Assembly (NCBI GenBank): GCA_035248345.1
Contig: DATFHO010000101.1
Location: forward strand, 80,407-144,406
Direction: 5' to 3'
DNA: 64,000 nt
Source of the DNA: Candidatus Limnocylindrales bacterium
GTDB lineage: Bacteria; Chloroflexota; Limnocylindria; Limnocylindrales; CSP1-4
The notes below the pieces were generated by a model. That model saw only the letters and a list, made by a program, of their open reading frames with translations. It was not told where the DNA came from and searched no databases. A program made the position numbers and the translations under genes. Positions 5,324 to 22,789 of this stretch are shown here, piece by piece. How positions within the stretch are numbered: position 1 is the first letter of the stretch; each line of letters opens with the position of its first letter.

Positions 5324-7078
<1,755 letters not shown>

Positions 7079-7085
7079 GGCGGGC

Positions 7086-9209
7086 CTACCTCCGTACGGT
7101 GGTCAACAGATGGGTCTGGTCGCGGCGTCGGTGCAGCGACTTTCGTTGCTCGTTCATGGCCTGGCTTTCGCGCAGGTACTGGTCGATCGCGGCCCGGTCG
7201 GCGGACTGCTCCGCCTCCGCGAGCGCAGCGGCGATGTAGTCGGCGCGCTCGTCGAGCGAGCGCTCCTCGAGATCGATCGTCAGCCGCTCGATCTCGTAGG
7301 CGAGGTCCGCAGCGGACAACGCGCGCGGATTGGGCTCGCGCCGGGCGATCACCGCCTGGGCGAGCGAGGCGGTCTCGGGATCGAGCCCGGCGATGAGCGC
7401 GGTGAGGCTGAACGGCGGGTGCACGCCCTTGTCGTCCGGCTCGCGGGCGATGACGACGGCCCGGAAGAGCTCGCGCGCGACCGTGCTCGGCAGCTGGTCC
7501 GGCCCGATCGCGTCGACGACCTTCAGCTGCATCTCCGGGACGAGCAGCAGGATCCGCAGGAACTCGGCCTCCTGCGGCAGGACGCCGCGCAGGATCTCCG
7601 CGATCGGCAGGGAGTCCTGGGCAGACACGATGGACTCTGCGTTGATGCGCCCGGTGTCAACACCGGTCCCGCCCGCGGTGGCCGGCCGGACCGCGCCGAC
7701 CGGCGCCATGCCCGCGTTCGCGAGACCGGACGCGCCACCGAGGCGGGTGCCCCGGAGGACCTCGAGGAGCACGCGCTCCTCCACCCCGGACACGCGATGC
7801 ACCAGCTGGAGGTACGCGTCGCGCATGACCGGGTTCGGGACGGCGCGGATCGTGGGCATCACGGCATCGACGAAGCGGGCCTTGCCGCCGGGCGTCTTGA
7901 GGTCGTACGTCTTCGCGTAGCTGTCGACGAGGTACTCGACGATCGGCTGGGCCGTGCGGACCTCCTCGCGCCAGCGATCCGGGCTTTCACGGAGGACCTC
8001 ATCCGGGTCCTTGCCCTCGGGGAGCCGGACGACGCGGACCTCGTCCAGCTCGATGCCGCTCTCGGTCGCGGCCAGCTGGCCGATCAGGGCCTGCAGCGCC
8101 TGCACGCCGAACGTGCCGGCCTTCTGCCCGGCGGCATCGACGTCGTACGCGAGCGCGATCCGCTTCGCATAGCGGGTCAGCAGCGCGACCTGGCCCGGGG
8201 TCAGCGCCGTCCCCAGGGACGCGACGACGTTGTCGAAGCCGGCTTGGTGGGCCATCAACGCGTCCGTATAGCCCTCGACGATCACGGCCTGGCCCGTCTT
8301 GCGCATCGACGTCTTGGCCTTGTCGATGAGATACAGGGAACGGCTCTTGTCGAAGAGCGGGGTGCCCGGGGTGTTGAGGTACTTCGGGCCGGTGTCGCGA
8401 CCGCCCTCCCCTTCCTTGCCCAGGATGCGGCCGCCCATGCCCGTGGCCGCCCCGTTCTGATCGCGGATCGGCCACAGCACGCGGCCGCGGAACTTGTCGA
8501 TGACGCCGACGCCGCGCTGCGGCGATCGAGCCGGCGAGGCGAGACCGGCCTCGACCAGCTCATCGGGACGAATGCCTTTCTTCTCGACCAGCGCGCGGCT
8601 CATGACATCCCACGCGTCCGGCGCCCAGCCGAGCTGTGCCGCGGCGATCGACTCGTCGGTGAAGCCGCGGTCGTGGAGGTAGTCCAGTGCGGGCTTGCCG
8701 TGCGAGGTCGCCGTCAGCACCTGGTGGTAGAACGCGATGGCCGTCTCCATGACCTCGCGGAGGCGGGCCTTGTGCATGTCCTCGCGCTTGGTCCGCTCGT
8801 CGATCTCGACGCCGGCCTTCGCGGCGAGGACCTTCAGGGCCTCCGGGAACGTGAGGTGATCGCGCTCCATCACGAAGCTGAAGACGTCACCGCCGAGGCC
8901 GCAGCCGAAGCACTTCCAGGATTCGCGGTTCGGGGTGACCGTGAACGAGGGCGTCTTCTCGCCGTGGAAGGGGCACAGGCCCTTGAAGGTCGTGCCTGCC
9001 TTCTTCAGCTGCACCGTCTCGCCGATCACCTCGACGATGTTCAGCTTGCTCTTGACTTCTGCTGCCGCGCCGCCTGCCGTCTCGCTCGCCTCCAGGTCCT
9101 GCCAGTCATTCCTACGCCCGGAACCACGCTTTGGTTGCGAATACGCCGGACATGGCTGTCGGCCTGTCAAGTCTTGACAAGCCGTCAGGGGGCATCGTAC
9201 CCCTCCCAT
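7086..9209 (-). CDS. dnaG: DNA primase DnaG (start uncertain)
   Basis: Zn-ribbon [11 protein letters not shown]...[24 protein letters not shown] region [30 protein letters not shown]. No stop occurs upstream for a further 150 codons. The ATG at 9209 (MGGVRCPL, preceded by AAGAGG) was chosen. An in-frame TTG at 9170 is an alternative. Confidence 0.8.
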
Positions 9210-9245
9210 ACCCCTCTTGACAAGAGGGTTTGTCAATACCCCTTG
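9160..9245. promoter_or_regulatory. dnaG upstream region with two copies of TCTTGACAAG, a third TTGTCAA and a hairpin cctctt-GAC-aagagg
   Basis: gtcaagTCTTGACAAGccg ... ccTCTTGACAAGagggTTTGTCAAtac. TTGACA hexamers occur on both strands in the 196-bp interval between divergent dnaG and the BNR gene. Confidence 0.3.
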
Positions 9246-9405
9246 GGAGTATTCCGTCCGGCGCCGCCGGCGCCAACGGCTCTCACCGGTGGCCCAGACC
9301 AATTCCCGCAGGTATCGGTCATACGACCGATGACGCTCGCGCCTGCCCGGCGGAGCCTTCACGGAGAAGCGGCAGTGTCGCCGCCACGGTGGAGGCGCAA
9401 TTTCC

Positions 9406-11151
9406 ATGGCCCGACTTACGGTCCGTCCCAGGCCCGGCGCGCTGGCGTTGCTCGGCGCGCTCGCGCTGCTCGTCCCGGCAATGCCTGCGAGCGCCGTCTC
9501 GACCGACACTCGGCTCGAATTCGGCGGCAATAAGCACGTCTTCGGCCAGATGTTCGAGGACGAGCCGTCGGTCGCCCTCGACCCGGCGCACCCGAACATC
9601 CTCGCCGCCGGCGTCAACGACAACCCGGACGGTGAGGCCTGCAACGCCGGCGATCCCACGGACTGCGCCTACACCGATGGCGCCGGAGGCGCCGGCATCT
9701 CGTTCTCGACCGATGGCGGCTCGACGTGGACCGCGCCGACGTACACGGGCTGGTCGGCGCGGGGCTGCCTCGGCCCGGAGGAGTGCGTTCCCGATCCGAA
9801 CGGGCCCATCAGCACGCTGCCCTGGTACGACGACATCGACATGTACACCATCGGTGACCCGGCCCTGGCGTTCGGTCCGCGACCGGACGCACAGGGTCGC
9901 TTCTCGTGGGCGAACGGCTCGCGGCTGTACTACGCCGCGATCGCGCTGCCCTTCCTGACGAACACCTCCTTCAAGGGCCAGGATGGGATCTACGTGTCGC
10001 GGACCGATGACGTCGCCGGTGCGATGGCCGGCGCGAAGTCGGCGTGGATGGCGCCGGTCCTCGTGGGCAAGCAGAACGCAGCGGTGACCCAGGACAAGAA
10101 CCAGCTGTGGGTCGACAACGCCGCGTCGAGCCCCTTCTTCGGCAACGTCTACGAGTGCAACGTCGCCTACCGGGGCGCCGGCAAGTCCTACTACGGCAAC
10201 GGCGAACCGATCCCGGACCCGGTGGTGTTCAGCCGTTCGACCGACGGCGGCACCACCTGGTCGACCAGCCAGATCTCGTCCGCGACGAACAACAAGCAGT
10301 CCGGCGGCCGGCAGGCCTGCAGCATCCGGACGACCAGTGACGGCGTCGTCGTCGTCATCTGGATCGGACAGAGCGACACGGTGCTCAACGCGGCCAGCGT
10401 CCTCTACGAGACCCGCTCCTACGACGGCGGCATCCGCTTCGAGAAGCCCCGACCGATCGGCACGACGACCTCGATCGGTCAGCTCGATCCCATGCAGGGC
10501 ACCACATCCATCGACGGCGTCGCCGGGGCGCGTACGTGGAACGCGCCGACGATCGACATCGCCAACGGCGCCCCGAGCGGTGCCGGCGCCACGAACCGGA
10601 TCGTCGTGGCGTGGTCGGACGATCGCAACGGCACGAACCAGGAGCAGGGCTGGCTCATCGCGTCGGCCGACAACGGCGGGACGTTCGGTTCGCCCGTCGC
10701 GTTCGGCCGCGCCGGTGATCGAGTCAACCAGCCGGCCGTCGCGATCTCCCCCGACGGCGCGAATGTCTACGTGGTCTACAACGCGTTCCTCGATCCATGG
10801 CGGAGCACGACGGCCGACCCGCGGCGAATGCTCGGGGTCGTCCGACAGGCTTCGTGGGGCAGCCTCGGAACCTGGTCGACCCTCCACACGGGCACGATCG
10901 CCGACGCACGGGGCGCGTCAGCCAACCCGCTCGAGAACGAGTTCCTGGGCGACTACAACAGCGCCGTCGCGACGAACAGCGGTGTCTTCGGGGCGTGGAA
11001 CGACGCTCGCGACGCGGCCTTGTGCCCCGCGATCGACGCGTATCGCCAGTCGATCCTCGACGGGAGCCCGACGGCGGCCCCGGCGCCGCAGCAGGACTGT
11101 CCGGATACGTTCGGCGCCGCGAGCATCTACGGCGGCTGGTACACCCCGTAA
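9406..11151 (+). CDS. Secreted BNR/Asp-box repeat protein (sialidase/glycoside-hydrolase-like)
   Basis: Signal peptide MARLTVRPRPGALALLGALALLVPAMPASA. Asp-box repeats STDGGSTW, STDGGTTW and SADNGGTF. GGAGG lies 10 nt upstream of the ATG. Confidence 0.6.
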   Translation: MARLTVRPRPGALALLGALALLVPAMPASAVSTDTRLEFGGNKHVFGQMFEDEPSVALDPAHPNILAAGVNDNPDGEACNAGDPTDCAYTDGAGGAGISFSTDGGSTWTAPTYTGWSARGCLGPEECVPDPNGPISTLPWYDDIDMYTIGDPALAFGPRPDAQGRFSWANGSRLYYAAIALPFLTNTSFKGQDGIYVSRTDDVAGAMAGAKSAWMAPVLVGKQNAAVTQDKNQLWVDNAASSPFFGNVYECNVAYRGAGKSYYGNGEPIPDPVVFSRSTDGGTTWSTSQISSATNNKQSGGRQACSIRTTSDGVVVVIWIGQSDTVLNAASVLYETRSYDGGIRFEKPRPIGTTTSIGQLDPMQGTTSIDGVAGARTWNAPTIDIANGAPSGAGATNRIVVAWSDDRNGTNQEQGWLIASADNGGTFGSPVAFGRAGDRVNQPAVAISPDGANVYVVYNAFLDPWRSTTADPRRMLGVVRQASWGSLGTWSTLHTGTIADARGASANPLENEFLGDYNSAVATNSGVFGAWNDARDAALCPAIDAYRQSILDGSPTAAPAPQQDCPDTFGAASIYGGWYTP

Positions 11152-11242
11152 CGCGACGCTCGCTTCGCGATCATGGATCGGCCCCGGGCTTCCGGGGCCG
11201 ATCCCGTTTCCTCGCCGGCGAGGTGCACTACGATGCACCGCC

Positions 11243-12010
11243 ATGGACCTCGGGCTCGCGACACTGCGCGCACTCGTCACCGGCGGCTCGGACGGCCTCG
11301 GTGCCGCCGTCGCTCGGGTGCTCGCAGGGGAGGGAGCCAGGGTCGCCGCCGCGGCACGTGCGTCCGATCGGCTGACGGGCATCGCGTCGGAGACCGGTGC
11401 CCACGCGATCGCCGCCGATCTCTCGACGGCGGACGGCCCGAGGCAAGCGGTCGACTCCGCGATCGATGCCCTCGGCGGGCTCGACCTGGTCGTCGTCAAC
11501 AGCGGCGGTCCTCCGCCCGGGCGCTTCGAGGACCTGTCCGAGGAGCAGTGGCAGCAGGCGATCGACGGCACGCTCTGGAGCTCCATCCGCCTCGTCCGGG
11601 CGGCGCTCCCGCACCTGCGCGACAGCACGGCGCCGGCGATCCTCGTGATCCTCTCCTCATCGGTGCGCGAGCCGATCCAGGCGCTCATGACCTCGAACGT
11701 CCTGCGCCCCGGGCTCGCGGGCATGATCAAGGCGCTCGTACCCGAGATCGCGCCGGTCCGGATCAACGGCATCGCGCCGGGGCGCGTGTCCACGAACCGG
11801 ATCGCACGACTGGATGCCAAGCGGGCGGCGGATGGCGGCGTCCCGGTCGAGGAGATCGAGCGGCAGACGATCGCGCGTATTCCGTTGGGCCGGTACGGCG
11901 ATCCTTCGGAGGTCGGCCGGCTGGGCGCCTTCCTCTTGTCGCCCGCCGCCTCGTACGTCAACGGGGCGATCGTGCCCGTTGATGGCGGCATGGTGAAAGC
12001 GCTTCCGTGA
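11243..12010 (+). CDS. SDR-family oxidoreductase
   Basis: Gly-rich loop LVTGGSDGLG, NSGG and the catalytic region of classical SDRs. The ATG at 11243 is in frame with the long track ORF, whose upstream part is Arg/Pro-rich junk. Confidence 0.75.
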   Translation: MDLGLATLRALVTGGSDGLGAAVARVLAGEGARVAAAARASDRLTGIASETGAHAIAADLSTADGPRQAVDSAIDALGGLDLVVVNSGGPPPGRFEDLSEEQWQQAIDGTLWSSIRLVRAALPHLRDSTAPAILVILSSSVREPIQALMTSNVLRPGLAGMIKALVPEIAPVRINGIAPGRVSTNRIARLDAKRAADGGVPVEEIERQTIARIPLGRYGDPSEVGRLGAFLLSPAASYVNGAIVPVDGGMVKALP

Positions 12011-12666
12011 GCTCGCCGCGGGTCGCGGCGGTCACGATCGGCCAGACACCCCGACCGGACCTGCTCGAGCCGCTCGTCGCGCGGGCCGGAACGGATGTGG
12101 AAATCATCGAGCTCGGCGCGCTGGACGGACTGACGGCGGACGAGCTGCCGCGACGAGCGCAAGCTGCCTACCCGTTGACGACCCGACTTCGCGACGGGTC
12201 GCGTGTCACGCTCGATGAAGCGGACCTCGCGCCCCTCGTCCAGCGGGCGATCGATGGGGCCGATGCTGTCGGAGCCGGCGTCACGCTCCTCCTGTGCGCA
12301 GGCGGGTTTGCCGACGCGACGGCGCGCGGAACGCTCGTCAGGCCGTTCGAGGCGGCGGTCGCGAAGGTGATGCAGCTCGGCGCACGGCGCGTCACCGTCC
12401 TCGTCCCGTTCGAGGCACAAGCCGACCCGACGCGGCGCAAGTGGGCCGCCGCAGGTGTCGATGCCGCGCCGTTGATCGGTGATCCGGCAACCGTCGACGT
12501 CCGCTGGATCGCCGACTGCCACGCGATCGTGCTCGACTACGTCGGGCATCCGGGCCGGGCTGTCAACGCACTCCGGACCCGCACCCGGATACCGGTGATC
12601 GATCTCGGCGAGTGCGGCGCGGACGCCGCCGTCGCTGCGCTCGGGATGGGCATGGTGGCCCGGTGA
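12007..12666 (+). CDS. AroM-family protein
   Basis: ~219 aa with the AroM-like pattern (VTIGQTPRPDL...TLLLCAGGF...VTVLVP). GTG start overlaps the SDR stop (GTGA). Confidence 0.55.
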   Translation: MSSPRVAAVTIGQTPRPDLLEPLVARAGTDVEIIELGALDGLTADELPRRAQAAYPLTTRLRDGSRVTLDEADLAPLVQRAIDGADAVGAGVTLLLCAGGFADATARGTLVRPFEAAVAKVMQLGARRVTVLVPFEAQADPTRRKWAAAGVDAAPLIGDPATVDVRWIADCHAIVLDYVGHPGRAVNALRTRTRIPVIDLGECGADAAVAALGMGMVAR

Positions 12667-13562
12667 GCGCGATCGACCAGCTCCGGGGTGTCTGGAACAT
12701 CGTCCCGACGCCGTTCGCGCACGACGGGAGCCTCGATGAAGCGAGCATCGGCACGCTCGTCGACTTCGTGATCGGCACGGGCGTCGACGGCATGACCGTC
12801 CTCGGGGTCATGGGCGAGGTCGGACGGTTGTCGGACGACGAGCGGCGGCGCGTCCTCGAGCTGGCCATCAGCGCCGCCGCCGGCCGCATCCCGGTGTGCG
12901 CGGGTGTCAGCCATGCGGCAACCGATCGCGCCGTCGCGTTCGCACGCGAAGCCCAGGAGCTCGGCGCGCACTCGGTGATGCTTGCGCCGCCCGCGCTCGC
13001 GAAGCCGAACGACGAGGCCGTCCGCGCGCACTACGCGGCGGTCGCGGGCGCCATCGCGATCCCGGTCGTCGTCCAGGACCACCCGGCCAGCTCGAGCGTC
13101 TGGATGAGCACATCGGTGATCGGCTCGATCGCCTGCGCGTCACCGCTGTGCCGCGTCGTCAAGCTCGAAGAGGAGCCGTCGCCGCCCAAGATCCGGCGGC
13201 TGCTCCGCGAGTCGCCTGACCTCGTCGTGCTCGGCGGGCTCGGCGCGATGCTGCTGATCGAGGAGCTGCGTGCGGGCGCGAGCGGCACGATGACCGGCTT
13301 CGGCTATCCCGACATCCTCGTGGACATCGTGCGCCGGTGGTTCGCGGGCGACGTCGACGGCGCGCGCGCCGCCTTCTACCGCGCTGCGCCGCTCATCCGG
13401 TTCGAGAACCAGGCGGGCTTGAACCTCACGATCCGCAAGGAAATCTACCGCAGGCGTGGGGCGATTGCGTCGGCTCGCGTCCGAGCGCCGGGGAGCCAGC
13501 TCGACGCCGGCACGATCGCCGACCTCGAAGACCTGCTCGCCCACCTGGAGCTGCCGGCCTGA
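12663..13562 (+). CDS. Dihydrodipicolinate synthase (DapA)/N-acetylneuraminate-lyase-family class I aldolase
   Basis: IVPTPFAHDGSLDEASIGTLVDFVIGTGVDGMTVLGVMGE is a DapA-family signature. GTG start overlaps the AroM stop (GTGA). Confidence 0.7.
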   Translation: MSAIDQLRGVWNIVPTPFAHDGSLDEASIGTLVDFVIGTGVDGMTVLGVMGEVGRLSDDERRRVLELAISAAAGRIPVCAGVSHAATDRAVAFAREAQELGAHSVMLAPPALAKPNDEAVRAHYAAVAGAIAIPVVVQDHPASSSVWMSTSVIGSIACASPLCRVVKLEEEPSPPKIRRLLRESPDLVVLGGLGAMLLIEELRAGASGTMTGFGYPDILVDIVRRWFAGDVDGARAAFYRAAPLIRFENQAGLNLTIRKEIYRRRGAIASARVRAPGSQLDAGTIADLEDLLAHLELPA

Positions 13563-14941
13563 TGGCGGTCGATCTCCTGGTCACGGGCGGGACCGTCGTG
13601 CTGCCCGACGGGACCCGGCGGGCGAGTATCGCGGTCGAGCGCGGCCGAATCGTCGCCATCGCGAGCGAGACGGACGAGCTGCCGGAGGCGCGCGAGCGCA
13701 TCGACGCGACCGGGCTGCACGTCCTGCCGGGCGTGATCGACACGCACACGCACGCACGCGACCCAAGCGTCGACGCGCGCGAGGATTTCGGCTCTGCGAC
13801 GGCGGCCGCGGCTGCCGGCGGGATCACGACGATCCTCGAGATGCCCATTTCCACGCCGTCCGTGCACTCGACGGCGACCTTCGAGCGGCGGGTCGAGATC
13901 GTGCAGCCGAAGGCGCACGTCGACTTCGGGCTGTACGGCGCGGCTGCCGCGGACAACCTCGCGGAGATCGAGGGCCTCGCCGCGGCCGGGGTCGTCGGGT
14001 ACAAGACGTTCCGGACACCGAAGCCCGTCGGGCGCGAGCGCGAGTTCATCGGGCTGTGCGCGCCCGATGCGGCCGACTACTCCGCGGCCCTTGTCGAAGT
14101 GGCGAGGACCGGGCTCATCGGTGCCGTGCACGCGGAAGATGCGCAGCTGCTCGCCGCGAACCAGCAGGCGCTGCAGGCCGCGGGCGATCGGGCACCGATG
14201 AGCCACGCCCGATGGCGCCCCGAGGTCGTGGAGCTCGCGTCGGTGGCGCAGTCGATCGAGCTCGCCCTTGCCGCGGGTGCGCGGCTGCAGCTGGCGCACT
14301 GCTCGAACCCGACGGCGGTCGCGCTCGCGGCTGCGGCTCGCGTGCGGGGCAGCGTCACGGTCGAGACGTGTCCGCACTACCTGTTCCTCACCGAGGCGGA
14401 CATCGAGCGCCATGGGCCGTTCGCCAAGATCAATCCTGCGCTTCGCTCGACGGCGTCCGTCGAGGGCATGTGGGCGGCGATCGCCGCGGGCCAGGTGGAT
14501 GTCATCGGCTCCGACCATTCGCCATTCCTCGTCGAGGAGAAGGCGCCGTTCGCCGACGACATGTGGGGCGCGCTGCCCGGCGCACCCGGTCTCGAGTCGC
14601 TCGTGCCGCTGATGCTCACGGCCGTGGCAGACGGTCGCATCTCGATCGAGCAGGCCGCGGGGCTGACGAGCGGCAACGCCGCCCGGATTTATGGCCTCCG
14701 CGACAAGGGGCGCATCGCCATCGGTGCCGACGGGGACTTGACGATCGTCGACCTGGCGCACGAGGGGAGGATCGACACCTCAGCGTGGCTGACGCGGTCA
14801 CGCGGGACGGCCGGTGTGTGGAACGGTCGGCGAGTGCGTGCGCAGGTGCGAGCCACCGTCGTTCGAGGCCGGACGGTGTACCGCGACGGGAACCTCGTGG
14901 GCGCACCCGGCTGGGGCCGGCTGGTGCGACCCGCCGCCTGA
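13562..14941 (+). CDS. Cyclic amidohydrolase (dihydroorotase/allantoinase/dihydropyrimidinase-hydantoinase family)
   Basis: MAVDLLVTGGTVVLPDG...GLHVLPGVIDTHTHARDP gives the metal-binding HxH. VHAED, HCS and GSDHSP motifs are present. ATG overlaps the preceding stop. Confidence 0.75.
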   Translation: MAVDLLVTGGTVVLPDGTRRASIAVERGRIVAIASETDELPEARERIDATGLHVLPGVIDTHTHARDPSVDAREDFGSATAAAAAGGITTILEMPISTPSVHSTATFERRVEIVQPKAHVDFGLYGAAAADNLAEIEGLAAAGVVGYKTFRTPKPVGREREFIGLCAPDAADYSAALVEVARTGLIGAVHAEDAQLLAANQQALQAAGDRAPMSHARWRPEVVELASVAQSIELALAAGARLQLAHCSNPTAVALAAAARVRGSVTVETCPHYLFLTEADIERHGPFAKINPALRSTASVEGMWAAIAAGQVDVIGSDHSPFLVEEKAPFADDMWGALPGAPGLESLVPLMLTAVADGRISIEQAAGLTSGNAARIYGLRDKGRIAIGADGDLTIVDLAHEGRIDTSAWLTRSRGTAGVWNGRRVRAQVRATVVRGRTVYRDGNLVGAPGWGRLVRPAA

Positions 14942-14963
14942 TTCCAGGGCCGGCGGCGGCCCT

Positions 14964-15887
14964 ATGATCCCGCCCATGGCCCTGATCGACGCTGACGTCA
15001 TCCCCGCCCATATCGAGCATCGCATCACCCTCCGCGACGGCCGAACGCTCGCGGCGGCGGAATGGGGAGACCCGAACGGGCTGCCGTTGATCTCGATGCA
15101 CGGCACGCCCGGCGGCCGGATCGGCTGGTGGAAGGATCCGACCATCTACGAGCGGCACGGCCTGCGACGGATCACCTTCGACCGCGCCGGCTATGGCGAA
15201 TCGACACGACAGAAGGGCCGCAGCGTCGTCGACAACGTATCGGACGTCGAGCAGCTGGCGGACGCGCTCGGCATCGATCAGTTCGTCGCCGCCGGCGGCT
15301 CCGGTGGCGGCCCGCATGTCCTCGCGGCTGCCGCCCTCCTCCCGGATCGCGTCATCCGCTGCCAGGCTGCCGTTTCCGTGGCGCCCTACGAGGCGTTCGG
15401 GGACACGTGGGTTGTCGGCATGACCGAGGGCAACGTCATCGAGTTCAACGCCGCGCGGCAGGGCGAAGGCGCGGTCACGGAGCTCTGCACCGACCTGCGG
15501 GTCATGAACGTGAACCGGCTCATGGAAGGCCGCGTCGACTGGATGGGCGACGACTACGACCTCTCCGACGCGGATCGCGAGCAGATGCAGAAGCACTTCA
15601 TCCGGACGCGCGCGCACATCGCCAATGGGCTCGCATCGAGCCCCGATGGCTGGATCGACGACAACCTGGCGATGGTCAAGCCGTGGGGCTTCGACGTCGA
15701 ATCGATCCGGGTGCCGGTGCTGCTCACCTACGGCCGGACCGACGTCCTCGTGCCGGCGGCGCACGGCGACTGGCTCGCCGCGCACATCCCGAACGTCACC
15801 GTCTGGGTGGACGAGGAGAGCGGCCACCTCGGCGACGACGACCAGATCGAGCGCGAGCACGCCTGGCTGAGCGGCCGAACGCCGTAG
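14964..15887 (+). CDS. Alpha/beta-hydrolase fold protein
   Basis: Nucleophile elbow GGSGGG, an HG oxyanion motif (ISMHGTPGG) and a C-terminal His (ESGHLGD). Confidence 0.7.
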   Translation: MIPPMALIDADVIPAHIEHRITLRDGRTLAAAEWGDPNGLPLISMHGTPGGRIGWWKDPTIYERHGLRRITFDRAGYGESTRQKGRSVVDNVSDVEQLADALGIDQFVAAGGSGGGPHVLAAAALLPDRVIRCQAAVSVAPYEAFGDTWVVGMTEGNVIEFNAARQGEGAVTELCTDLRVMNVNRLMEGRVDWMGDDYDLSDADREQMQKHFIRTRAHIANGLASSPDGWIDDNLAMVKPWGFDVESIRVPVLLTYGRTDVLVPAAHGDWLAAHIPNVTVWVDEESGHLGDDDQIEREHAWLSGRTP

Positions 15888-15914
15888 GCGGGACAGCGCG
15901 GGGCGGCGCCGGCG

Positions 15915-16604
15915 TCAGCCCTCTGCGCGCTCGTCCGCCGTCTCGAGCCCGCGAACGCGGATCTCGCTGATCACCTCGTCGATGCCGGGGACGGACTCGG
16001 CAACCGCCACGAGCTCGTCTTCGGATTCGATGTCGTCGACGCTTCCCCGCAGGATCGCCGTTCGACCCTCGACGCCGATCGACAGGTCGTCCAGCAGGGC
16101 GCTCGTCGCGGCATTCGTCATGAGTGCCTCCATCACCCGGGTCTGGACCTCGTCGCCCGCCGTCACCGGCTCGGCGTGATGGTCGGCGTCGAAAGGCTCG
16201 TCATCGGCGCTGGTCGCGAATCCCGCCGCGATCACCGCGTCGCCCCGCGCATCCGCGACGACGGGCGGATCGGTGGGCGGGATCCACGTGAAGCCTTCCT
16301 CGGCGGCCTCGTTCGGGTCGTCGGTTTCGCCGGCGCGGAACTCGCCGGCGGCGAGGTCCTCGATGCTTCCGGCCGGGCCGTCGTCCGGCTGGTCCGAATC
16401 GGGCGCGCGGGCCTCGAGGGCGCCCTCGTAGATGCCCGTGTCCGTGATCTCGCCGAGCTCGTCGACCTCGGCGGCGTCGGGTACCGAGTCCGCACCGACC
16501 GGGCGAAGGCCCAGCAGCGACGCCACGTCGGGATCGACGTCGGCGCGGCTGTCAGGCCCGGCGCCCGTCAGGGCGTCTCGAGCCGGATCAGATCGGTCGG
16601 TCAC
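15915..16604 (-). CDS. Acidic BON-domain (OsmY-like) protein
   Basis: C-terminal BON-like module (TAILRGSVDDIESEDELVAVAESVPGIDEVISEIRV). Highly acidic N-terminal half. GTG start overlaps the stop of the upstream hemerythrin gene. Confidence 0.5.
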   Translation of the reverse strand: MTDRSDPARDALTGAGPDSRADVDPDVASLLGLRPVGADSVPDAAEVDELGEITDTGIYEGALEARAPDSDQPDDGPAGSIEDLAAGEFRAGETDDPNEAAEEGFTWIPPTDPPVVADARGDAVIAAGFATSADDEPFDADHHAEPVTAGDEVQTRVMEALMTNAATSALLDDLSIGVEGRTAILRGSVDDIESEDELVAVAESVPGIDEVISEIRVRGLETADERAEG

Positions 16605-17116
16605 CGGTCGCTCGAGTCGCCGCCCTTGAGCGCCTGGTCGGCCTTGCCGAGGACCTCGGCCATCGCGCCGCCGGCTTCACCGGCTGCCTTCGCGGCACTC
16701 ACCTTGGCGCCGGCATCCTGCAGCTTGTCCTCGCCCCACGTCTCGCGGATGAGGGGCCAGAACTGGTCCTCCTCGACGGCCATGTGCTGCTCGAGCGCCT
16801 GGCGGAGCTGCTGCACCGTCGCGAGCCACTCGCTGTCGTTCACGTCCAGCTCGCCGATCCGATCCATGAGCTGGTTGGCGTCGTGCGCCTCCTGCTCGTG
16901 CTGCGCGTGGAATGCATCAAGGCGGGTGTCGGTGTCGCCGATCTCCTCCACGACGGGGTCGTAGACGAACTTCTCCTCGATCTGCTCGTGGAGCTTCAGC
17001 GCCGCGTGGAGCTTCGCCCAGGCGCCGGCACGGTCCGTTGCGCCGCTGGTTCCGAGCTTCGCGAATTCGGTCCGAGCCTCCTCGTGCATCTGCTCGAGCT
17101 CGTCGAGTGCGTCCAT
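16601..17116 (-). CDS. Hemerythrin HHE cation-binding-domain protein
   Basis: 171 aa with H/E-rich helix pairs (LHEQIEEKF...FHAQHEQEAHDAN...EQHMAVEEDQFWP). GGAGG lies 7 nt upstream of the ATG at 17116. Confidence 0.65.
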   Translation of the reverse strand: MDALDELEQMHEEARTEFAKLGTSGATDRAGAWAKLHAALKLHEQIEEKFVYDPVVEEIGDTDTRLDAFHAQHEQEAHDANQLMDRIGELDVNDSEWLATVQQLRQALEQHMAVEEDQFWPLIRETWGEDKLQDAGAKVSAAKAAGEAGGAMAEVLGKADQALKGGDSSDR

Positions 17117-18751: not shown

Positions 18752-19218
18752 GCGCAGGCACCGCAGTCGCTCGGTCCGGCGCCCGGCGCCGTGCCGATGC
18801 GGTCGCCCGATTCGAGGCCCGCGACGGTGACCTGTGGGTCGCGACGGGGGCCGGCGATGGCTCCGTCCATCTCGTGCCGCTGTCGTATGCATGGGACGGC
18901 GAGCACATCCTGATCGCCGTCGCGGTGGATTCGCCGACCGCGCGGAACCTCCAGGCTTCGCGGCGGGCACGGCTCGGGTTCGGACCGACACGCGACGTGG
19001 TCCTTGTCGAGGCGGAGGTCACGCGCAGCTCGCCCGTCCGGCATCCGGATGCCGTCGCGGTCGGTGCGCGATACGCCGCGCAGGCCGACTGGGACCCGCG
19101 CGAGGCGTCCGCTTCCTACCTCTTCGTGCTGCTGCGGCCGGTGCGCATCCAGGCGTGGCGGGAGGCGAACGAGCTCGCCGGGCGGCTGCTGATGCGGGAT
19201 GGCACATGGCTGACGTGA
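18748..19218 (+). CDS. Pyridoxamine 5'-phosphate oxidase-family (PPOX class, possibly F420-dependent) protein
   Basis: TTG start overlapping the upstream stop (TTGA). Split-barrel PPOX-like core (GSVHLVPLSYAWDGEHILIAV). The 3' end overlaps uvrA2 by 13 nt. Confidence 0.55.
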   Translation: MSAGTAVARSGARRRADAVARFEARDGDLWVATGAGDGSVHLVPLSYAWDGEHILIAVAVDSPTARNLQASRRARLGFGPTRDVVLVEAEVTRSSPVRHPDAVAVGARYAAQADWDPREASASYLFVLLRPVRIQAWREANELAGRLLMRDGTWLT

Positions 19219-21578
19219 CGGACTTCGGCGCGATCAAGGTTCGCGGGGCGCGGGAGAACAACCTCCGCAGCGTCGACCTCGACATCCCGAAGCGGGAGCT
19301 GACGGTCTTCACCGGCGTCTCCGGCTCCGGGAAGAGCTCACTGGTGTTCGGGACGATCGCCGCCGAATCGCAGCGGCTCATCAACGAGACATACAGCGCG
19401 TTCGTACAGGGCTTCATGCCGACGCTCGCACGGCCGGACGTTGACTCGCTGGAGGGCCTGACGACCGCGATCATCCTCGACCAGGAGCGGATGGGCGCCA
19501 ACGTCCGATCCACGGTCGGCACGGTGACCGACGCCAACGCGATCCTGCGCGTCGTCTTCAGCCGCATCGCCCAGCCGCAGATCGGCGGCCCGCAGGCGTA
19601 CTCGTTCAACATCCCGTCCGTCAGTGGGGCCGGCGCGGTCAAGTTCCAGAAGGGCGGCCAGACCGTCACGGAGCGGAAGACCTTCTCCATCGCCGGCGGC
19701 ATGTGCCCCCGCTGCGAGGGGATGGGTACGGCGAAGGACATCGACACCACCCAGCTCTATGACGCATCGAAGACGCTCTCGACCGGTGCGATCACCATCC
19801 CCGGCTTCGCGGCCGAGGGCTGGCTGGTCCAGATCCTCGAGAAGACCGGCTTCTTCGACATGACGAAGCCGATCCGTGACTTCAACAAGGCGGAGCTGGA
19901 CCACCTGCTGTACCAGCAGCCGATGAAGGTCAAGGTGAACGGCGTCAACCTGACCTACCAGGGCCTGGTGCCGCGGATCCAGCAGTCGATGCTGTCGAAG
20001 GACGTCGAGGCGCTCCAGCCCCACATCCGGGCGTTCGTGGAGCGGATCGCGACGTTCACGCCGTGTCCGGAATGCGGCGGGACGCGGCTGTCCGAAGCGG
20101 CGCGCACATCCCGCATCGAGGGCGTCAGCATCGCGGACGCGTGTGCGATGCAGATCAGCGACCTCGCCGAGTGGGTCCGCGGGCTCCAGCAACCGTCCGT
20201 TGCACCGCTGCGCGCCGCGCTCGGCGAGACCCTGGATGCGTTCGTCGAGATGGGCCTCGGCTACCTGAGCCTGGACCGGGCCTCCGGCACGCTCTCCGGC
20301 GGCGAGGCACAGCGCACGCGGATGGTCCGACACGTTGGATCGCCGCTCACGGACGTCACCTACGTCTTCGACGAGCCGACGATCGGGCTCCACGCCCACG
20401 ACGTCGAGAAGATGAACGCGCTCCTCCGGCGCCTTCGTGACAAGGGCAACACGGTCCTCGTCGTCGAGCACGATCCGGAGGTGATCCGCATCGCGGACCA
20501 CGTCGTGGACATGGGGCCGGGTGCGGGTCCGCATGGCGGAACCGTGGTGTTCGAGGGAAGCGTGGACGGCCTCGCAGGCGCCGACACCGCCACCGGCCGG
20601 CACCTCGACCAGCAGGTCTCCCTCAAGCCGACCGTGCGCACGTCCTCGGCCTCGATCGCGATCCGGCACGCGGCGCTGCACAATCTCCAGGATGTCTCCG
20701 TGGACGTCCCGCTCGGGGTCATGGTGGCGATCACCGGCGTCGCCGGGTCCGGCAAGAGCTCGCTCATCCACGGCTGCCTGCCGCGCGAAACCCCGTCGGT
20801 GACCGTCATCGACCAATCGGCGATCAAGGGCTCGCGGCGGTCCAGCCCCGCCACCTACACCGGGATCCTCGATCCCATCCGCACCGCGTTCGCCAAGGCC
20901 AACGGCGTGAAGCCGGCGCTGTTCAGCGCGAACTCCGAGGGCGCGTGCCCGGCCTGCAACGGGCTCGGCAAGATCTACACGAGCCTCGGGTTCATGGCGG
21001 AGGTGGCCAGCGTGTGCGAGGTGTGCGAGGGCCGCCGCTTCACCGATGAAGTGCTCGAGTACCGGCTGCGCGGGAAGAACATCGTCGAGGTCCTCGCGAT
21101 GCCGGTGGAGGAGGCGGCGGCGTTCTTCACCGAGACGCCGGTGAAGACGATGCTCGACCGGTTGGCCGATGTCGGGCTCGGGTACGTCTCGCTCGGGCAG
21201 GAGCTCGACACGCTCTCCGGTGGCGAGCGCCAGCGGCTCAAGCTCGCGATCGAGATGTCGTCCGACACCGAGGTCTATGTCCTCGACGAGCCGACGACCG
21301 GCCTGCACATGCGGGACGTGGACAACCTCGTGGGCCTGCTGGATCGCCTCGTCGAGAGCCGCCGCACCGTCATCGTCATCGAGCACAACCTCGACGTCGT
21401 GGCGCACGCGGACTGGGTCATCGACATGGGCCCCGGTGCCGGCCACGATGGCGGCCGGGTGGTGTTCGAAGGGCCGCCATCGGCCCTGGTCGATGCGCCG
21501 GGCTCGCTGACCGGTGAGCACCTCCGGCGGCGCCTCGAGCCCGTTCGCGCTGCGTCTGGAGCCGCCGCGCACGCCTGA
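19206..21578 (+). CDS. uvrA2: Class II UvrA-like excinuclease ABC ATPase (UvrA2; no UvrB-binding domain)
   Basis: 790 aa. Two ABC modules: Walker A GVSGSGKSSL and GVAGSGKSSL; signatures LSGGEAQR and LSGGERQR. Zn-finger pairs CPRCEGMG, CPECGGTR, CPACNGLG and CEVCEG. Too short for a class I UvrA of ~950 aa. Confidence 0.85.
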   Translation: MADVTDFGAIKVRGARENNLRSVDLDIPKRELTVFTGVSGSGKSSLVFGTIAAESQRLINETYSAFVQGFMPTLARPDVDSLEGLTTAIILDQERMGANVRSTVGTVTDANAILRVVFSRIAQPQIGGPQAYSFNIPSVSGAGAVKFQKGGQTVTERKTFSIAGGMCPRCEGMGTAKDIDTTQLYDASKTLSTGAITIPGFAAEGWLVQILEKTGFFDMTKPIRDFNKAELDHLLYQQPMKVKVNGVNLTYQGLVPRIQQSMLSKDVEALQPHIRAFVERIATFTPCPECGGTRLSEAARTSRIEGVSIADACAMQISDLAEWVRGLQQPSVAPLRAALGETLDAFVEMGLGYLSLDRASGTLSGGEAQRTRMVRHVGSPLTDVTYVFDEPTIGLHAHDVEKMNALLRRLRDKGNTVLVVEHDPEVIRIADHVVDMGPGAGPHGGTVVFEGSVDGLAGADTATGRHLDQQVSLKPTVRTSSASIAIRHAALHNLQDVSVDVPLGVMVAITGVAGSGKSSLIHGCLPRETPSVTVIDQSAIKGSRRSSPATYTGILDPIRTAFAKANGVKPALFSANSEGACPACNGLGKIYTSLGFMAEVASVCEVCEGRRFTDEVLEYRLRGKNIVEVLAMPVEEAAAFFTETPVKTMLDRLADVGLGYVSLGQELDTLSGGERQRLKLAIEMSSDTEVYVLDEPTTGLHMRDVDNLVGLLDRLVESRRTVIVIEHNLDVVAHADWVIDMGPGAGHDGGRVVFEGPPSALVDAPGSLTGEHLRRRLEPVRAASGAAAHA

Positions 21579-21589
21579 CCGCGCATACG

Positions 21590-22789
21590 ATGCCGGCGAT
21601 GGACCTCCTCGCCGCTGCCCGCGCGATCCTGCCGGAGATCGTCGATACCCGGCGCCGCATCCATCGGCACCCGGAGCTCGGCCTGGAGCTGCCCGTGACG
21701 CAGCGGCTCGTCGCCGCACGGCTGGAGGAGCTGGGGCTCGAGCCGCAACTCGGGCGGGGCCTGTCGTCGGTGACGGCGCGGATCGGGGCCGATCGACCGG
21801 GCCGCACGGTGCTCCTGCGGGCCGACATGGACGCCCTGCCGATGCCCGAGGAGACCGGGCTGGAGTTCGCGTCCGAGGTTGACGGCGCGATGCACGCGTG
21901 CGGTCACGACACGCACGTCGCGATGCTGCTCGGCGCTGCTCGGCTGCTCGTGGATGCCGCCGCCGCCGACCCGTCAGCCCTGCCGGGACCCGTCGTCCTC
22001 ATGTTCCAGCCCGGGGAGGAAGGGTTCGCCGGCTCGCGGCACATGATCGAGGAGGGCCTCCTCGAGGGGCTCGACCCCGCGACGACCCGCGCATTGGCGG
22101 TGCACATCTCCGCGAGGTACCCGTCCGGCGAGCTCCACTCCCGTCCCGGCCCGATGCAGGCGTCCGCGGACAACTTCTTCATCACGATCCACGGGCGGGG
22201 CGGCCATGCCTCCACGCCGCACCTCGCCGCCGATCCGATACCCGTGGCCGCCGAGATCGTCCTCGCGCTGCAGACGGCCGTCACGCGGTCCGTGGACGTG
22301 TTCGACCCGGCCGTGCTGACGGTGGCGCATCTCGATGCGGGCACCACGCACAACGTGATCCCCGAGCGGGCATTCCTCGAGGGCACGTACCGCTGCGTCT
22401 CCGACGTTCGGCGGGCCGCGATGCCGGAGCTCATCCGCCGCGTCGCCGAGGGCGTGGCCGCGGCGCACGGGCTCGGCGTCCACGTCCGCTTCCAGGAGAT
22501 CTACCCGGTCACGATGAACGACCCGGAGGTCTTCGAAGCGGTCCGCGCGATCGCCGTCGACCTCGTCGGCGAGACCGACGTCCACACGATGGCGGCGCCG
22601 ATCATGCCCGCCGAGGACTGGTCCTTCGTGCTCCAGCGAATCCCGGGCGTGATGGTGGACCTCGGGGCGCGGCCAAGGGATCGGGCGCTCGAGGGCTATC
22701 CGCAGAACCACTCGAGCACGGTGGTGTTCGATGAGGCCGCCATGGCCGTGGGCGCCGCCCTGTACGCGAAGGCGGCGCTCGAGCTCTAG
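21590..22789 (+). CDS. M20-family amidohydrolase (N-acyl-amino-acid / hippurate hydrolase type)
   Basis: Metal ligands HACGHD, ...GEEG... and the dimerisation domain typical of the M20D subfamily. Confidence 0.8.
   Translation: MPAMDLLAAARAILPEIVDTRRRIHRHPELGLELPVTQRLVAARLEELGLEPQLGRGLSSVTARIGADRPGRTVLLRADMDALPMPEETGLEFASEVDGAMHACGHDTHVAMLLGAARLLVDAAAADPSALPGPVVLMFQPGEEGFAGSRHMIEEGLLEGLDPATTRALAVHISARYPSGELHSRPGPMQASADNFFITIHGRGGHASTPHLAADPIPVAAEIVLALQTAVTRSVDVFDPAVLTVAHLDAGTTHNVIPERAFLEGTYRCVSDVRRAAMPELIRRVAEGVAAAHGLGVHVRFQEIYPVTMNDPEVFEAVRAIAVDLVGETDVHTMAAPIMPAEDWSFVLQRIPGVMVDLGARPRDRALEGYPQNHSSTVVFDEAAMAVGAALYAKAALEL

Follow-up and report, generated by a model that had tools for sequence, protein, structure and literature searches.

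Four genes on one strand of a 64,000-nucleotide stretch of DNA from a Candidatus Limnocylindrales bacterium (contig DATFHO010000101.1; the whole stretch is called the window here, G+C ~70%) encode a short-chain dehydrogenase/reductase (SDR)-like protein, a member of the AroM family, a protein of the dihydrodipicolinate synthase (DHDPS) family and a cyclic amidohydrolase (Table 1). An earlier reading of the same DNA, made from the letters and open reading frames alone (the sequence-only reading), had taken them for an operon that degrades a cyclic ureide or lactam. Neighbouring genes overlap by 1-4 bp, and sequence reading confirmed the two GTGA junctions and the one TGATG junction that had been described. 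The start codons chosen for the four genes are consistent with the N-termini of their homologues, and the overlapping start and stop codons indicate that the genes are co-translated. The four family assignments, i.e. SDR, AroM, DHDPS and amidohydrolase, also proved correct when compared with Pfam.

Table 1. The four-gene operon, its junctions and nearby genes, in window coordinates
Feature	Start codon and position	Strand	Product	Match or basis	Location
SDR-like gene	ATG 11243..12010	+	255 aa	Pfam adh_short_C2 2e-39	operon
AroM gene	GTG 12007..12666	+	219 aa	AroM PF07302 2e-32	operon
DHDPS-like gene	GTG 12663..13562	+	299 aa	DHDPS PF00701 4.6e-35	operon
Amidohydrolase gene	ATG 13562..14941	+	459 aa	Amidohydro_1 2e-19	operon
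GTGA start/stop overlap, SDR-like / AroM	12007..12010	+		sequence reading	operon
GTGA start/stop overlap, AroM / DHDPS-like	12663..12666	+		sequence reading	operon
TGATG stop/start overlap, DHDPS-like / amidohydrolase	13560..13564	+		sequence reading	operon
Alpha/beta hydrolase gene	14964..15887	+		Pfam Abhydrolase_1 1.4e-18	22 bp downstream of operon
BNR/sialidase-like secreted protein	9406-11151	+	581 aa; signal-peptide-like N-terminus		91 bp upstream of operon
DnaG primase	~7086-9209	-			immediately upstream, opposite strand
Principal sigma-70 factor (RpoD-like)	5324-7078	-			immediately upstream, opposite strand
UvrA-like ABC ATPase	~19206-21578	+	~790 aa		
M20 amidohydrolase	21590-22789	+			12 bp after UvrA-like gene

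The four encoded proteins

The amidohydrolase keeps all of the metal ligands, namely HxH in DTHTH, Lys in GYKTF, His in VHAED and in AHCSN, and Asp in SDHSP, and these align with the ligands of both AllB and the Arthrobacter L-hydantoinase 1gkr. In agreement with the superfamily named in the sequence-only reading, we predict a complete enzyme of the dihydroorotase (DHOase)/hydantoinase/allantoinase type, with a binuclear-metal site that includes a carboxylated Lys. No NCBIfam equivalog cut-off was exceeded, the nearest approach being a borderline miss of the allantoinase model TIGR03178 (340.4, cut-off 357.85), which is just passed by the Roseiflexaceae-type orthologue from L016 (362.1). Scores against the other models, with cut-offs in brackets, were 336.8 (631) for allantoinase NF004839; 313.8 (482), 291.8 (452) and 266 (279) for DHOase PRK09060, PRK02382 and TIGR00857, respectively; 302.8 and 289.9 (650 and 600) for the two models of ErtD, the hydantoin-5-propionate amidohydrolase; and 255.9 (393.25) for D-hydantoinase/dihydropyrimidinase TIGR02033. 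The best PDB match is 1gkr (235 bits), and the identity is 32% to E. coli AllB, 33% to the ErtD of Sporosarcina and Bacillus, and 44-54% to the corresponding enzymes of the same gene set in other phyla. The amidohydrolase thus represents a separate clade lying between L-hydantoinase, allantoinase and ErtD, and probably is not a bona fide PyrC or AllB. At the position aligned with Asn94 of AllB, a residue that we take to be important for allantoin binding, Ser or Ala is found.

AroM was confirmed as a member of PF07302 (112.9 bits, cut-off 23.8, residues 6-198), a small family with 989 matches at E <= 1e-3 among 1.84 billion representative proteins. It scores below the equivalog model of E. coli AroM (NCBIfam NF007788/PRK10481; 84.5 vs 198 bits) as well as below the gathering score of PF01177, the Asp/Glu/hydantoin racemase family (18.7 vs 31 bits), and comparison with PDB sequences gave chance matches only. 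The best Foldseek match of its AlphaFold2 model (pLDDT 94.1) is the allantoin racemase 3qvj (E 3e-8, TM 0.66 by query), followed by arylmalonate decarboxylase (AMDase), maleate isomerase and hydantoin racemase. The model therefore predicts the two-domain Asp/Glu/hydantoin racemase fold, a kinship that the sequence-only reading had suspected, and we predict that the protein acts as a racemase or epimerase without any cofactor.

Cys97 of AroM, which follows the strand 92-96, was scored as invariant, although E. coli AroM has Ser there. The position of a second Cys is occupied, according to the family alignment, by Tyr178 (VLDYVGH) in the clade of the window protein, whereas the majority of AroM proteins elsewhere in the family, among them those linked to ErtD, to DUF917 and to the acidobacterial four-gene sets, have Cys (LDCxG) after the equivalent strand of the other domain. 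By hhalign, Tyr178 falls on the second Cys of hydantoin-racemase-like proteins, albeit in a weak match. Since the acidobacterial sets keep a Cys/Cys AroM, both versions of AroM serve the same set of genes. E. coli K-12 AroM (L092, 3429-4106) shows the reverse of the Cys97 and Tyr178 of the window, with Ser at the first site (ILLMSTAN) and the second Cys kept (MLDCLGF). The aroL-aroM operon of E. coli was reportedly sequenced in 1986, and AroM is said to have been an orphan since. The one functional comment on AroM that we found calls it uncharacterised (PMC10557607).

The DHDPS-like protein scores 121.2 bits against PF00701 (cut-off 22.1), and its VVKLEEE motif holds the Lys that corresponds in alignment to the Schiff-base Lys of 3fkk and 3dz1. 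No NCBIfam equivalog cut-off is reached (dapA, 120.3 vs 206.15). Among its PDB matches, 3dz1, a structural-genomics entry from R. palustris with no function assigned, comes out at 161 bits, the L-2-keto-3-deoxyarabinonate (L-KDA) dehydratase KdaD/AraD (3fkk/7c0c) at 150 bits, and the true DapA entries at ~70-98 bits. Besides 37% identity to both KdaD and 3dz1, it has in common with them the DHDPS/NAL fold, a QDxP motif (here QDHP) in place of YNxP, by which Gln replaces the catalytic Tyr133, and K-x-E, in which the Schiff-base Lys is followed by a Glu base at K+2. These motifs place it in the L-KDA-dehydratase/3dz1-like branch. Of the earlier label "DapA-like aldolase", the Schiff-base DHDPS family holds and the likeness to DapA does not.

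In CnKdaD the Glu base at K+2 is E174, and a Glu-Glu pair (E200/E201) is needed for C5 deprotonation (PMC13398020). The window protein and every orthologue in the gene set have GGLG where KdaD has DGEE (3dz1 has GNG), and we rejected an identity as L-KDA dehydratase because this pair is absent. Instead, we propose that the enzyme would deprotonate C3 of a 2-oxo acid and then either eliminate the C4 substituent or cleave the C3-C4 bond. To our knowledge, every KdaD, KdgD or HypD pathway has an aldehyde dehydrogenase. Two PROSITE aldehyde dehydrogenase patterns found such a gene in only 1 of ~105 loci, and 2-oxoglutarate semialdehyde is therefore an unlikely product of the DHDPS-like enzyme. A route to this compound of the 1-pyrroline-4-hydroxy-2-carboxylate (Pyr4H2C) deaminase or KdgD-like kind was likewise set aside as unlikely, there being no linked aldehyde dehydrogenase.

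The SDR-like protein reaches no equivalog cut-off (best NCBIfam match PRK08339, 159 bits, cut-off 339), and its closest counterparts in the PDB are 5va8 and 2z1n. Both the Gly-rich NAD(P) motif, TGGSDGLG, and the Ser of the catalytic tetrad (LSSSV) are retained, and the protein may bind NAD(P) as judged from the former. Alignment to E. coli FabG shows that Y-x3-K is replaced by S-N-V-L-R, with Ser for Y151 and Arg for K155, and the protein does not combine the Rossmann motif with the Ser-Tyr-Lys of classical SDRs. The S-N-x-x-R motif is kept in 12 of the 12 SDRs of this gene set and its relatives that we compared, proteobacterial ones included (window, L001, L016, L059, L067, L084, L085, L094, L095, L098, L099, and L100). 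CDD reportedly describes this group of SDRs (APE0912/2z1n-like) as having no perfect catalytic tetrad. The "dehydrogenase" of the sequence-only reading is thus right as to the SDR family, whereas the role that the name implies is uncertain, as both the catalytic Tyr and Lys are missing.

Conservation of the gene set and other contexts of AroM

A scan of one genome per GTDB species with the AroM alignment yielded 79 loci, at which partner genes were scored by tblastn with the window proteins up to a limit of 8 kb from AroM; an amidohydrolase of at least 40% identity was counted as window-type. All four genes were present within 8 kb in 24 of the 79 AroM-bearing species genomes. Three further loci lacked the SDR only, and in nine AroM was accompanied by a distant amidohydrolase (31-40% identity) and a DHDPS-like gene. 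The four-gene sets (modules) are found in Chloroflexota, Acidobacteriota and Actinomycetota and come in three orders: SDR-AroM-DHDPS-amidohydrolase in Limnocylindria (window, L001, and L058), AroM-DHDPS-SDR-amidohydrolase in Roseiflexaceae-type Chloroflexota, and amidohydrolase-AroM-DHDPS-SDR in Acidobacteriota and one metagenome-assembled genome (MAG) of Actinomycetota. The Roseiflexaceae-type module is followed by an HpcH/HpaI (HpcH/GarL-like) aldolase gene in 13 loci. A three-gene variant, AroM-amidohydrolase-DHDPS, occurs in Rhodothermales, Gemmatimonadota and Trueperaceae, and a DUF6282/Amidohydro_2-like gene and an SBP_bac_5 binding protein precede it in L037, L041, L046, L051 and L054 (Rhodothermales, Trueperaceae, and relatives).

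The genes flanking the module differ from locus to locus and are unrelated. The four tightly overlapping genes form a real operon, which recurs in shuffled order in at least six bacterial phyla. The association is beyond chance, and a gene content that stays the same across phyla while the order changes is a classic sign that the genes are functionally coupled. The sequence-only reading would have been undermined by an amidohydrolase clustering tightly with PyrC or AllB in an operon conserved nowhere else; neither is the case, given the equivalog scores and the counts above. The module is carried by soil and freshwater lineages that are abundant but for the most part uncultured (Limnocylindria, Roseiflexaceae, and Vicinamibacterales). 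No carbamoylase, transaminase or aldehyde dehydrogenase was found linked to the four-gene set, and the transporters that stand beside variants of the module are of the amino-acid or peptide type. Solute-binding proteins next to such variants are of the families SBP_bac_5 (L046 and L094), SBP_bac_3 (L084 and L099) and Peripla_BP_6 (L086), and L097 has a TRAP binding protein.

Two observations concern individual loci. A close Limnocylindrales relative (L003/L005, 8001-11075) has only AroM and the amidohydrolase (83% identical), which overlap each other; an adenosine-deaminase-family gene comes next, and DHDPS and SDR are absent. The Roseiflexaceae-type module lies among near-identical neighbours on the MAG contigs L011, L020, L032, L034, L016 and L038; the taxonomic names given to these contigs ("uncultured Klebsiella sp.", "Singulisphaera sp." or "Thermoflexus hugenholtzii JAD2") look unreliable.

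Outside the module, AroM also keeps company with ring-opening amidases. In Sporosarcina and Bacillus it adjoins ErtE, the N-carbamyl-L-glutamate amidohydrolase (568 bits, cut-off 520), and ErtD (791 bits, cut-off 650), both above their NCBIfam cut-offs, at loci that also hold an IclR regulator and a Na+/solute symporter. In Anaerolineales and Promineifilaceae (L010, L012, L013, L022, L023, L025, L026, L035, L056, and L057), AroM is found with a third, DHOase-like clade of amidohydrolase, whose identity to the window enzyme is 27-32%, and with a group II pyridoxal-phosphate decarboxylase, and in some of these loci additionally with an M20 carbamoylase-like gene; this set has the look of a pathway that turns a ring amide into an amine. 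In Streptomyces, Neorhizobium, Roseomonas and others, AroM occurs with DUF917/hydantoinase genes and OPT or Dpp transporters. It is also fused to a full Asp_Glu_race (hydantoin racemase) domain, to TauD/TfdA-type Fe(II)/2-oxoglutarate dioxygenases and to a GNAT acetyltransferase (P0190, P0266, P0236, P0264, P0261, and P0141). Two apparent SBP_bac_5-AroM fusions, P0189 and P0225, seem to be merged gene calls. In cyclodipeptide-oxidase clusters without a cyclodipeptide synthase (CDPS), an enrichment of AroM, DUF917, hydantoin racemases and peptide transporters has been reported (PMC10557607). The racemase fold of AroM and its recurrence beside several types of ring-opening amidase support a pair of racemase and ring opener, and a racemase or epimerase that serves a ring-opening amidase is the best-supported role for AroM. 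The suggestion that the operon could give AroM a functional context is thereby borne out, and the orphan family gains its first consistent one.

AroM, DHDPS and SDR orthologues also occur where the amidohydrolase is missing. In L008 and L085, which are Limnocylindria relatives, a proline dehydrogenase and an aspartate-aminotransferase (AspAT)-like transaminase take its place, the DHDPS and SDR being 65-69% identical to those of the window, and in L084 the three orthologues are accompanied by a polar-amino-acid ABC transporter only. Mammalian hydroxyproline degradation, which ends in HOGA1, offers a parallel to the combination of proline dehydrogenase, transaminase and DHDPS-family enzyme.

A search with the window DHDPS-like protein, together with tblastn annotation of four plasmid records, revealed analogous sets from the same four superfamilies in cultured Proteobacteria. 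Their DHDPS proteins are of the 3dz1 type, 45-72% identical to 3dz1 and 36-40% to the window protein. Sulfitobacter alexandrii AM1-D1 has a Dpp transporter, a TRZ/ATZ-like amidohydrolase, a two-Cys hydantoin-racemase-like protein, DHDPS, an S-N-x-x-R SDR, a CN-hydrolase and an FAD oxidoreductase; the set of Labrenzia sp. THAF187b is similar, with two amidohydrolases and again an S-N-x-x-R SDR. Comamonas antarctica 16-35-5 has a racemase, LysR, SDR, the dihydropyrimidinase hydA, an amino-acid ABC transporter and DHDPS, and in Rhizobium and Mesorhizobium a DHDPS-SDR pair stands with an amidohydrolase or, in Mesorhizobium, with an M24 Xaa-Pro-peptidase-like gene. Agrobacterium pAt (L097) and Paracoccus denitrificans (L103) carry PxpC-PxpB, a TRAP transporter, PxpA, a D-amino-acid transaminase and a 3dz1-type DHDPS gene, an apparently uncharacterised cluster whose content suggests a pathway for a substituted 5-oxo-D-proline-type lactam.

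Across these contexts, the core would be the pair of lyase and SDR-like protein, usually with a racemase, to which varying entry enzymes are added: cyclic amidohydrolases of several kinds, 5-oxoprolinase, proline dehydrogenase or a prolidase-like enzyme. The variety of entry enzymes argues for an intermediate derived from an amino acid, accessible either from a ring amide or from a ring of the proline type, and then turned into a 2-oxo acid bearing a substituent at C4. In particular, the sister contexts with proline dehydrogenase and AspAT-like transaminase, with PxpABC and with M24 genes indicate a glutamate- or hydroxyproline-type skeleton and entry through a lactam.

A candidate pathway and its alternatives

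With a probability of about 0.5, the four genes constitute an operon, coupled in translation, for the catabolism of a cyclic amide with a five- or six-membered ring that derives from an amino acid. This amide may be a cyclic ureide or 5-substituted hydantoin, or else a lactam of the 5-oxoproline type. The gene structure, the placement in families and subfamilies, the active-site motifs and the patterns of conservation and co-occurrence are observations; for the catalytic roles, the order of the steps and the substrate, we infer the following scheme. AroM, as a cofactor-independent racemase with a Cys97/Tyr178 pair, would interconvert the stereoisomers of the ring, and the stereoselective, metal-dependent cyclic amidohydrolase would open all of the substrate. 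The atypical, Tyr-less SDR-like protein would then process the open-chain product. Finally, the K-x-E Schiff-base lyase of the KdaD/3dz1 branch would bind a 2-oxo acid and remove the C4 substituent or cleave at it, and the products expected from this step would be pyruvate-type compounds rather than 2-oxoglutarate semialdehyde.

Our leading guess for the substrate is a ring derivative, hydantoin or lactam, of 4-hydroxyglutamate, from which a 4-amino or 4-ureido group would leave at the lyase step. Chemistry of the 4-hydroxyglutamate type suits the contexts above best, and its ring form, whether a 5-substituted hydantoin or a 4-hydroxy-5-oxoproline lactam, would call for both a racemase and a ring opener. 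Spelled out, this would be a disposal of a 4-substituted glutamate-type cyclic amide free of carbamoylase and transaminase: AroM would racemise the ring, the amidohydrolase would open it, the Tyr-less SDR-like protein would make or handle the 2-oxo function, and the K-x-E enzyme would expel the C4 amino or ureido group by retro-Mannich reaction or beta-elimination, leaving pyruvate, glyoxylate, and ammonia or urea. Neither a carbamoylase nor a transaminase would be needed, since the amino or ureido group is expelled from C4 by the lyase. In so detailed a form the proposal is decidedly doubtful; if true, it would give first functions to four orphan subfamilies, namely AroM, the 3dz1-like DHDPS, the S-N-x-x-R SDR and the amidohydrolase clade.

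The module is most likely a variant of racemase-plus-hydantoinase catabolism, built from uncharacterised subfamilies. Like the Hyu system (hydantoin racemase, D- or L-hydantoinase and N-carbamoyl-amino-acid amidohydrolase), it joins a racemase-fold protein to a binuclear-metal cyclic amidohydrolase, for which the L-hydantoinase 1gkr is the nearest solved relative. Unlike in Hyu, however, the racemase belongs to PF07302 rather than PF01177 and has Cys/Tyr instead of Cys/Cys, no carbamoylase is linked, and the constant partners are the K-x-E Schiff-base lyase and the Tyr-less SDR-like protein. The ErtD/ErtE system resembles the module in that AroM adjoins both enzymes in Sporosarcina and Bacillus, but the window enzyme reaches less than half of the higher ErtD cut-off and tblastn found no ErtE in the window (ErtA-C were not searched for). 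The PxpABC clusters follow a similar logic, with a ring-amide opener, then a 2-oxo acid and then a K-x-E DHDPS-family enzyme. They differ in that their opener is ATP-dependent and non-homologous, a transaminase is present, the Agrobacterium cluster has neither racemase nor SDR, and the clusters are themselves uncharacterised. Of the cyclic ureide or lactam route put forward in the sequence-only reading, the pairing of racemase and ring opener stands, whereas a classical hydantoin or dihydropyrimidine route fits poorly and a lactam is equally open, because no carbamoylase is linked; the class of substrate is itself a proposal.

Several findings weigh against a cyclic-amide operon. The window AroM lacks the second Cys of the two-thiol racemases, and hence their catalytic Cys pair. 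With the catalytic Tyr and Lys absent from the SDR-like protein, the oxidation step is uncertain. The lack of a linked carbamoylase is odd for a ureide route, and a lactam would be an unusual substrate for an enzyme that scores so near to allantoinase and hydantoinase. Most four-gene loci, that of the window included, have no adjacent transporter or regulator that would hint at the substrate. AroM, DHDPS and SDR occur together also without the amidohydrolase (L008, L084, and L085), which makes ring opening an optional entry point and not the core. The proteobacterial sets consist of different subfamilies, as the identities of their DHDPS proteins show, and their function may differ. All four subfamilies are biochemically uncharacterised, and literature searches on AroM/PF07302, on hydantoin racemase with DHDPS and SDR, and on ErtD returned no description of the module or of AroM function.

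One specific version of the cyclic-amide pathway would be a hydroxyproline/4-hydroxyglutamate branch entered through a lactam, in which AroM epimerises a 4-hydroxy-5-oxoproline-type lactam, the amidohydrolase opens it to 4-hydroxyglutamate, the SDR-like protein or a housekeeping transaminase yields 4-amino- or 4-hydroxy-2-oxoglutarate, and the DHDPS-like enzyme releases pyruvate and glyoxylate. It would explain the proline dehydrogenase and AspAT-like transaminase beside the AroM, DHDPS and SDR orthologues of L008 and L085, the PxpABC clusters of Agrobacterium and Paracoccus with their D-amino-acid transaminase and 3dz1-type DHDPS, and the M24 prolidase-like gene beside DHDPS and SDR. TauD-type hydroxylase-AroM fusions, the lack of a linked aldehyde dehydrogenase and the fact that human HOGA1 is a DHDPS-family 4-hydroxy-2-oxoglutarate aldolase fit it as well. 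We nevertheless regard this version as doubtful: the amidohydrolase is most like ureide hydrolases, tblastn found neither proline dehydrogenase nor a similar transaminase in the window, HOGA1 does not appear among the 60 best PDB matches to the DHDPS-like protein, and ATP-independent hydrolysis of 5-oxoproline-type lactams is thermodynamically unfavourable. Another reading is utilisation of allantoin, with AroM as allantoin racemase (HpxA/AllR), the amidohydrolase as AllB, and DHDPS and SDR, plus the HpcH aldolase in some lineages, handling the glyoxylate released downstream. Both the best NCBIfam model of the amidohydrolase, narrowly missed in the window and passed by the Roseiflexaceae-type orthologue, and the best structural neighbour of AroM are of this pathway. 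It is unlikely all the same, since the identity to E. coli AllB is about as low as that to ErtD, the second allantoinase model is missed by a wide margin (337 vs 631), and Ser or Ala stands at the Asn94 position. Moreover, window-type modules never have an allantoate amidohydrolase (ErtE/AllC-type M20) next to them; the recurrent gene clusters of the module's surroundings include no allantoicase, ureidoglycolate lyase or urease, although no dedicated search for these downstream genes was made; and DHDPS and SDR also partner the proline dehydrogenase, Pxp and M24 entry enzymes, which are unrelated to allantoin.

Catabolism of cyclic dipeptides (2,5-diketopiperazines), with AroM epimerising the alpha-carbons of the ring and the amidohydrolase opening it to a linear dipeptide, would accord with the company of AroM in the CDPS-less cyclodipeptide-oxidase clusters (PMC10557607) and with the Dpp/OPT transporters and M20 peptidases that adjoin AroM in several loci. 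It is quite unlikely for the module, as the window-type module has no dipeptidase, most four-gene loci have no peptide transporter, and the conserved Schiff-base lyase and SDR-like protein would be left without a role. We consider very unlikely a non-phosphorylative sugar-acid pathway, in which the SDR would be a sugar or keto-deoxy-acid dehydrogenase, the amidohydrolase a lactonase, AroM an epimerase and the DHDPS-like protein a keto-deoxy-acid dehydratase or aldolase. The resemblance of the DHDPS-like protein to L-KDA dehydratase in identity, QDxP and K-x-E, the HpcH/GarL-like aldolase after the module in 13 loci and the BNR/sialidase-like gene upstream in the window would agree with such a pathway. 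On the other hand, the DHDPS-like protein lacks the catalytic Glu-Glu pair of KdaD, neither a sugar-acid dehydratase nor a 2-oxoglutarate-semialdehyde dehydrogenase is linked, the amidohydrolase falls in the ureide-hydrolase and not the lactonase branch, the transporters of the variants are for amino acids or peptides, and the BNR gene is not conserved at other loci. That the genes share no pathway, with a housekeeping dihydroorotase (PyrC) lying by chance beside unrelated genes, is effectively refuted by conservation: several DHOase models do match at E 1e-94 to 1e-79, yet every DHOase equivalog stays below its cut-off, the partners stay the same across phyla while their order changes, and the genes overlap by a few base pairs.

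The cyclic-amide operon, if this is what the module is, may point to a nitrogen-rich substrate that is absent from current pathway maps. It presents a four-gene set spread over many phyla in which each member comes from an uncharacterised subfamily with an altered catalytic motif or, for the amidohydrolase, from a distinct clade. Stereoselective pairs of hydantoinase and racemase are also of biocatalytic interest, and the analogous sets in cultured Comamonas, Sulfitobacter, Labrenzia and Paracoccus make the question directly testable.

Surroundings of the operon

Systematic annotation of the window extends to ~22.7 kb. A scan of 9200-16800 for promoters and terminators gave no consensus element, and the ends of the operon are thus not defined. 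The alpha/beta hydrolase gene that follows may be co-transcribed with the operon; a homologue was found beside the module at no other locus examined. For the 581-aa protein encoded upstream, all BNR/sialidase-like matches are sub-threshold and there is no NCBIfam match, and its gene does not recur beside the module at other loci. By tblastn, the window contains no homologues of proline dehydrogenase, AspAT-like transaminase, HpcH, ErtE, DUF6282 or AstE.

Further downstream, the M20 amidohydrolase was considered as the missing carbamoylase and rejected. It is CpsA-like (351 bits, cut-off 500) and DoeB2-like (264 bits, cut-off 550), unlike ErtE, and lies 6.6 kb off behind unrelated genes. The UvrA-like ABC ATPase that precedes it is shorter than canonical UvrA. 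On the other side of the operon, the rpoD-dnaG neighbours on the opposite strand flank the module in L089, too.

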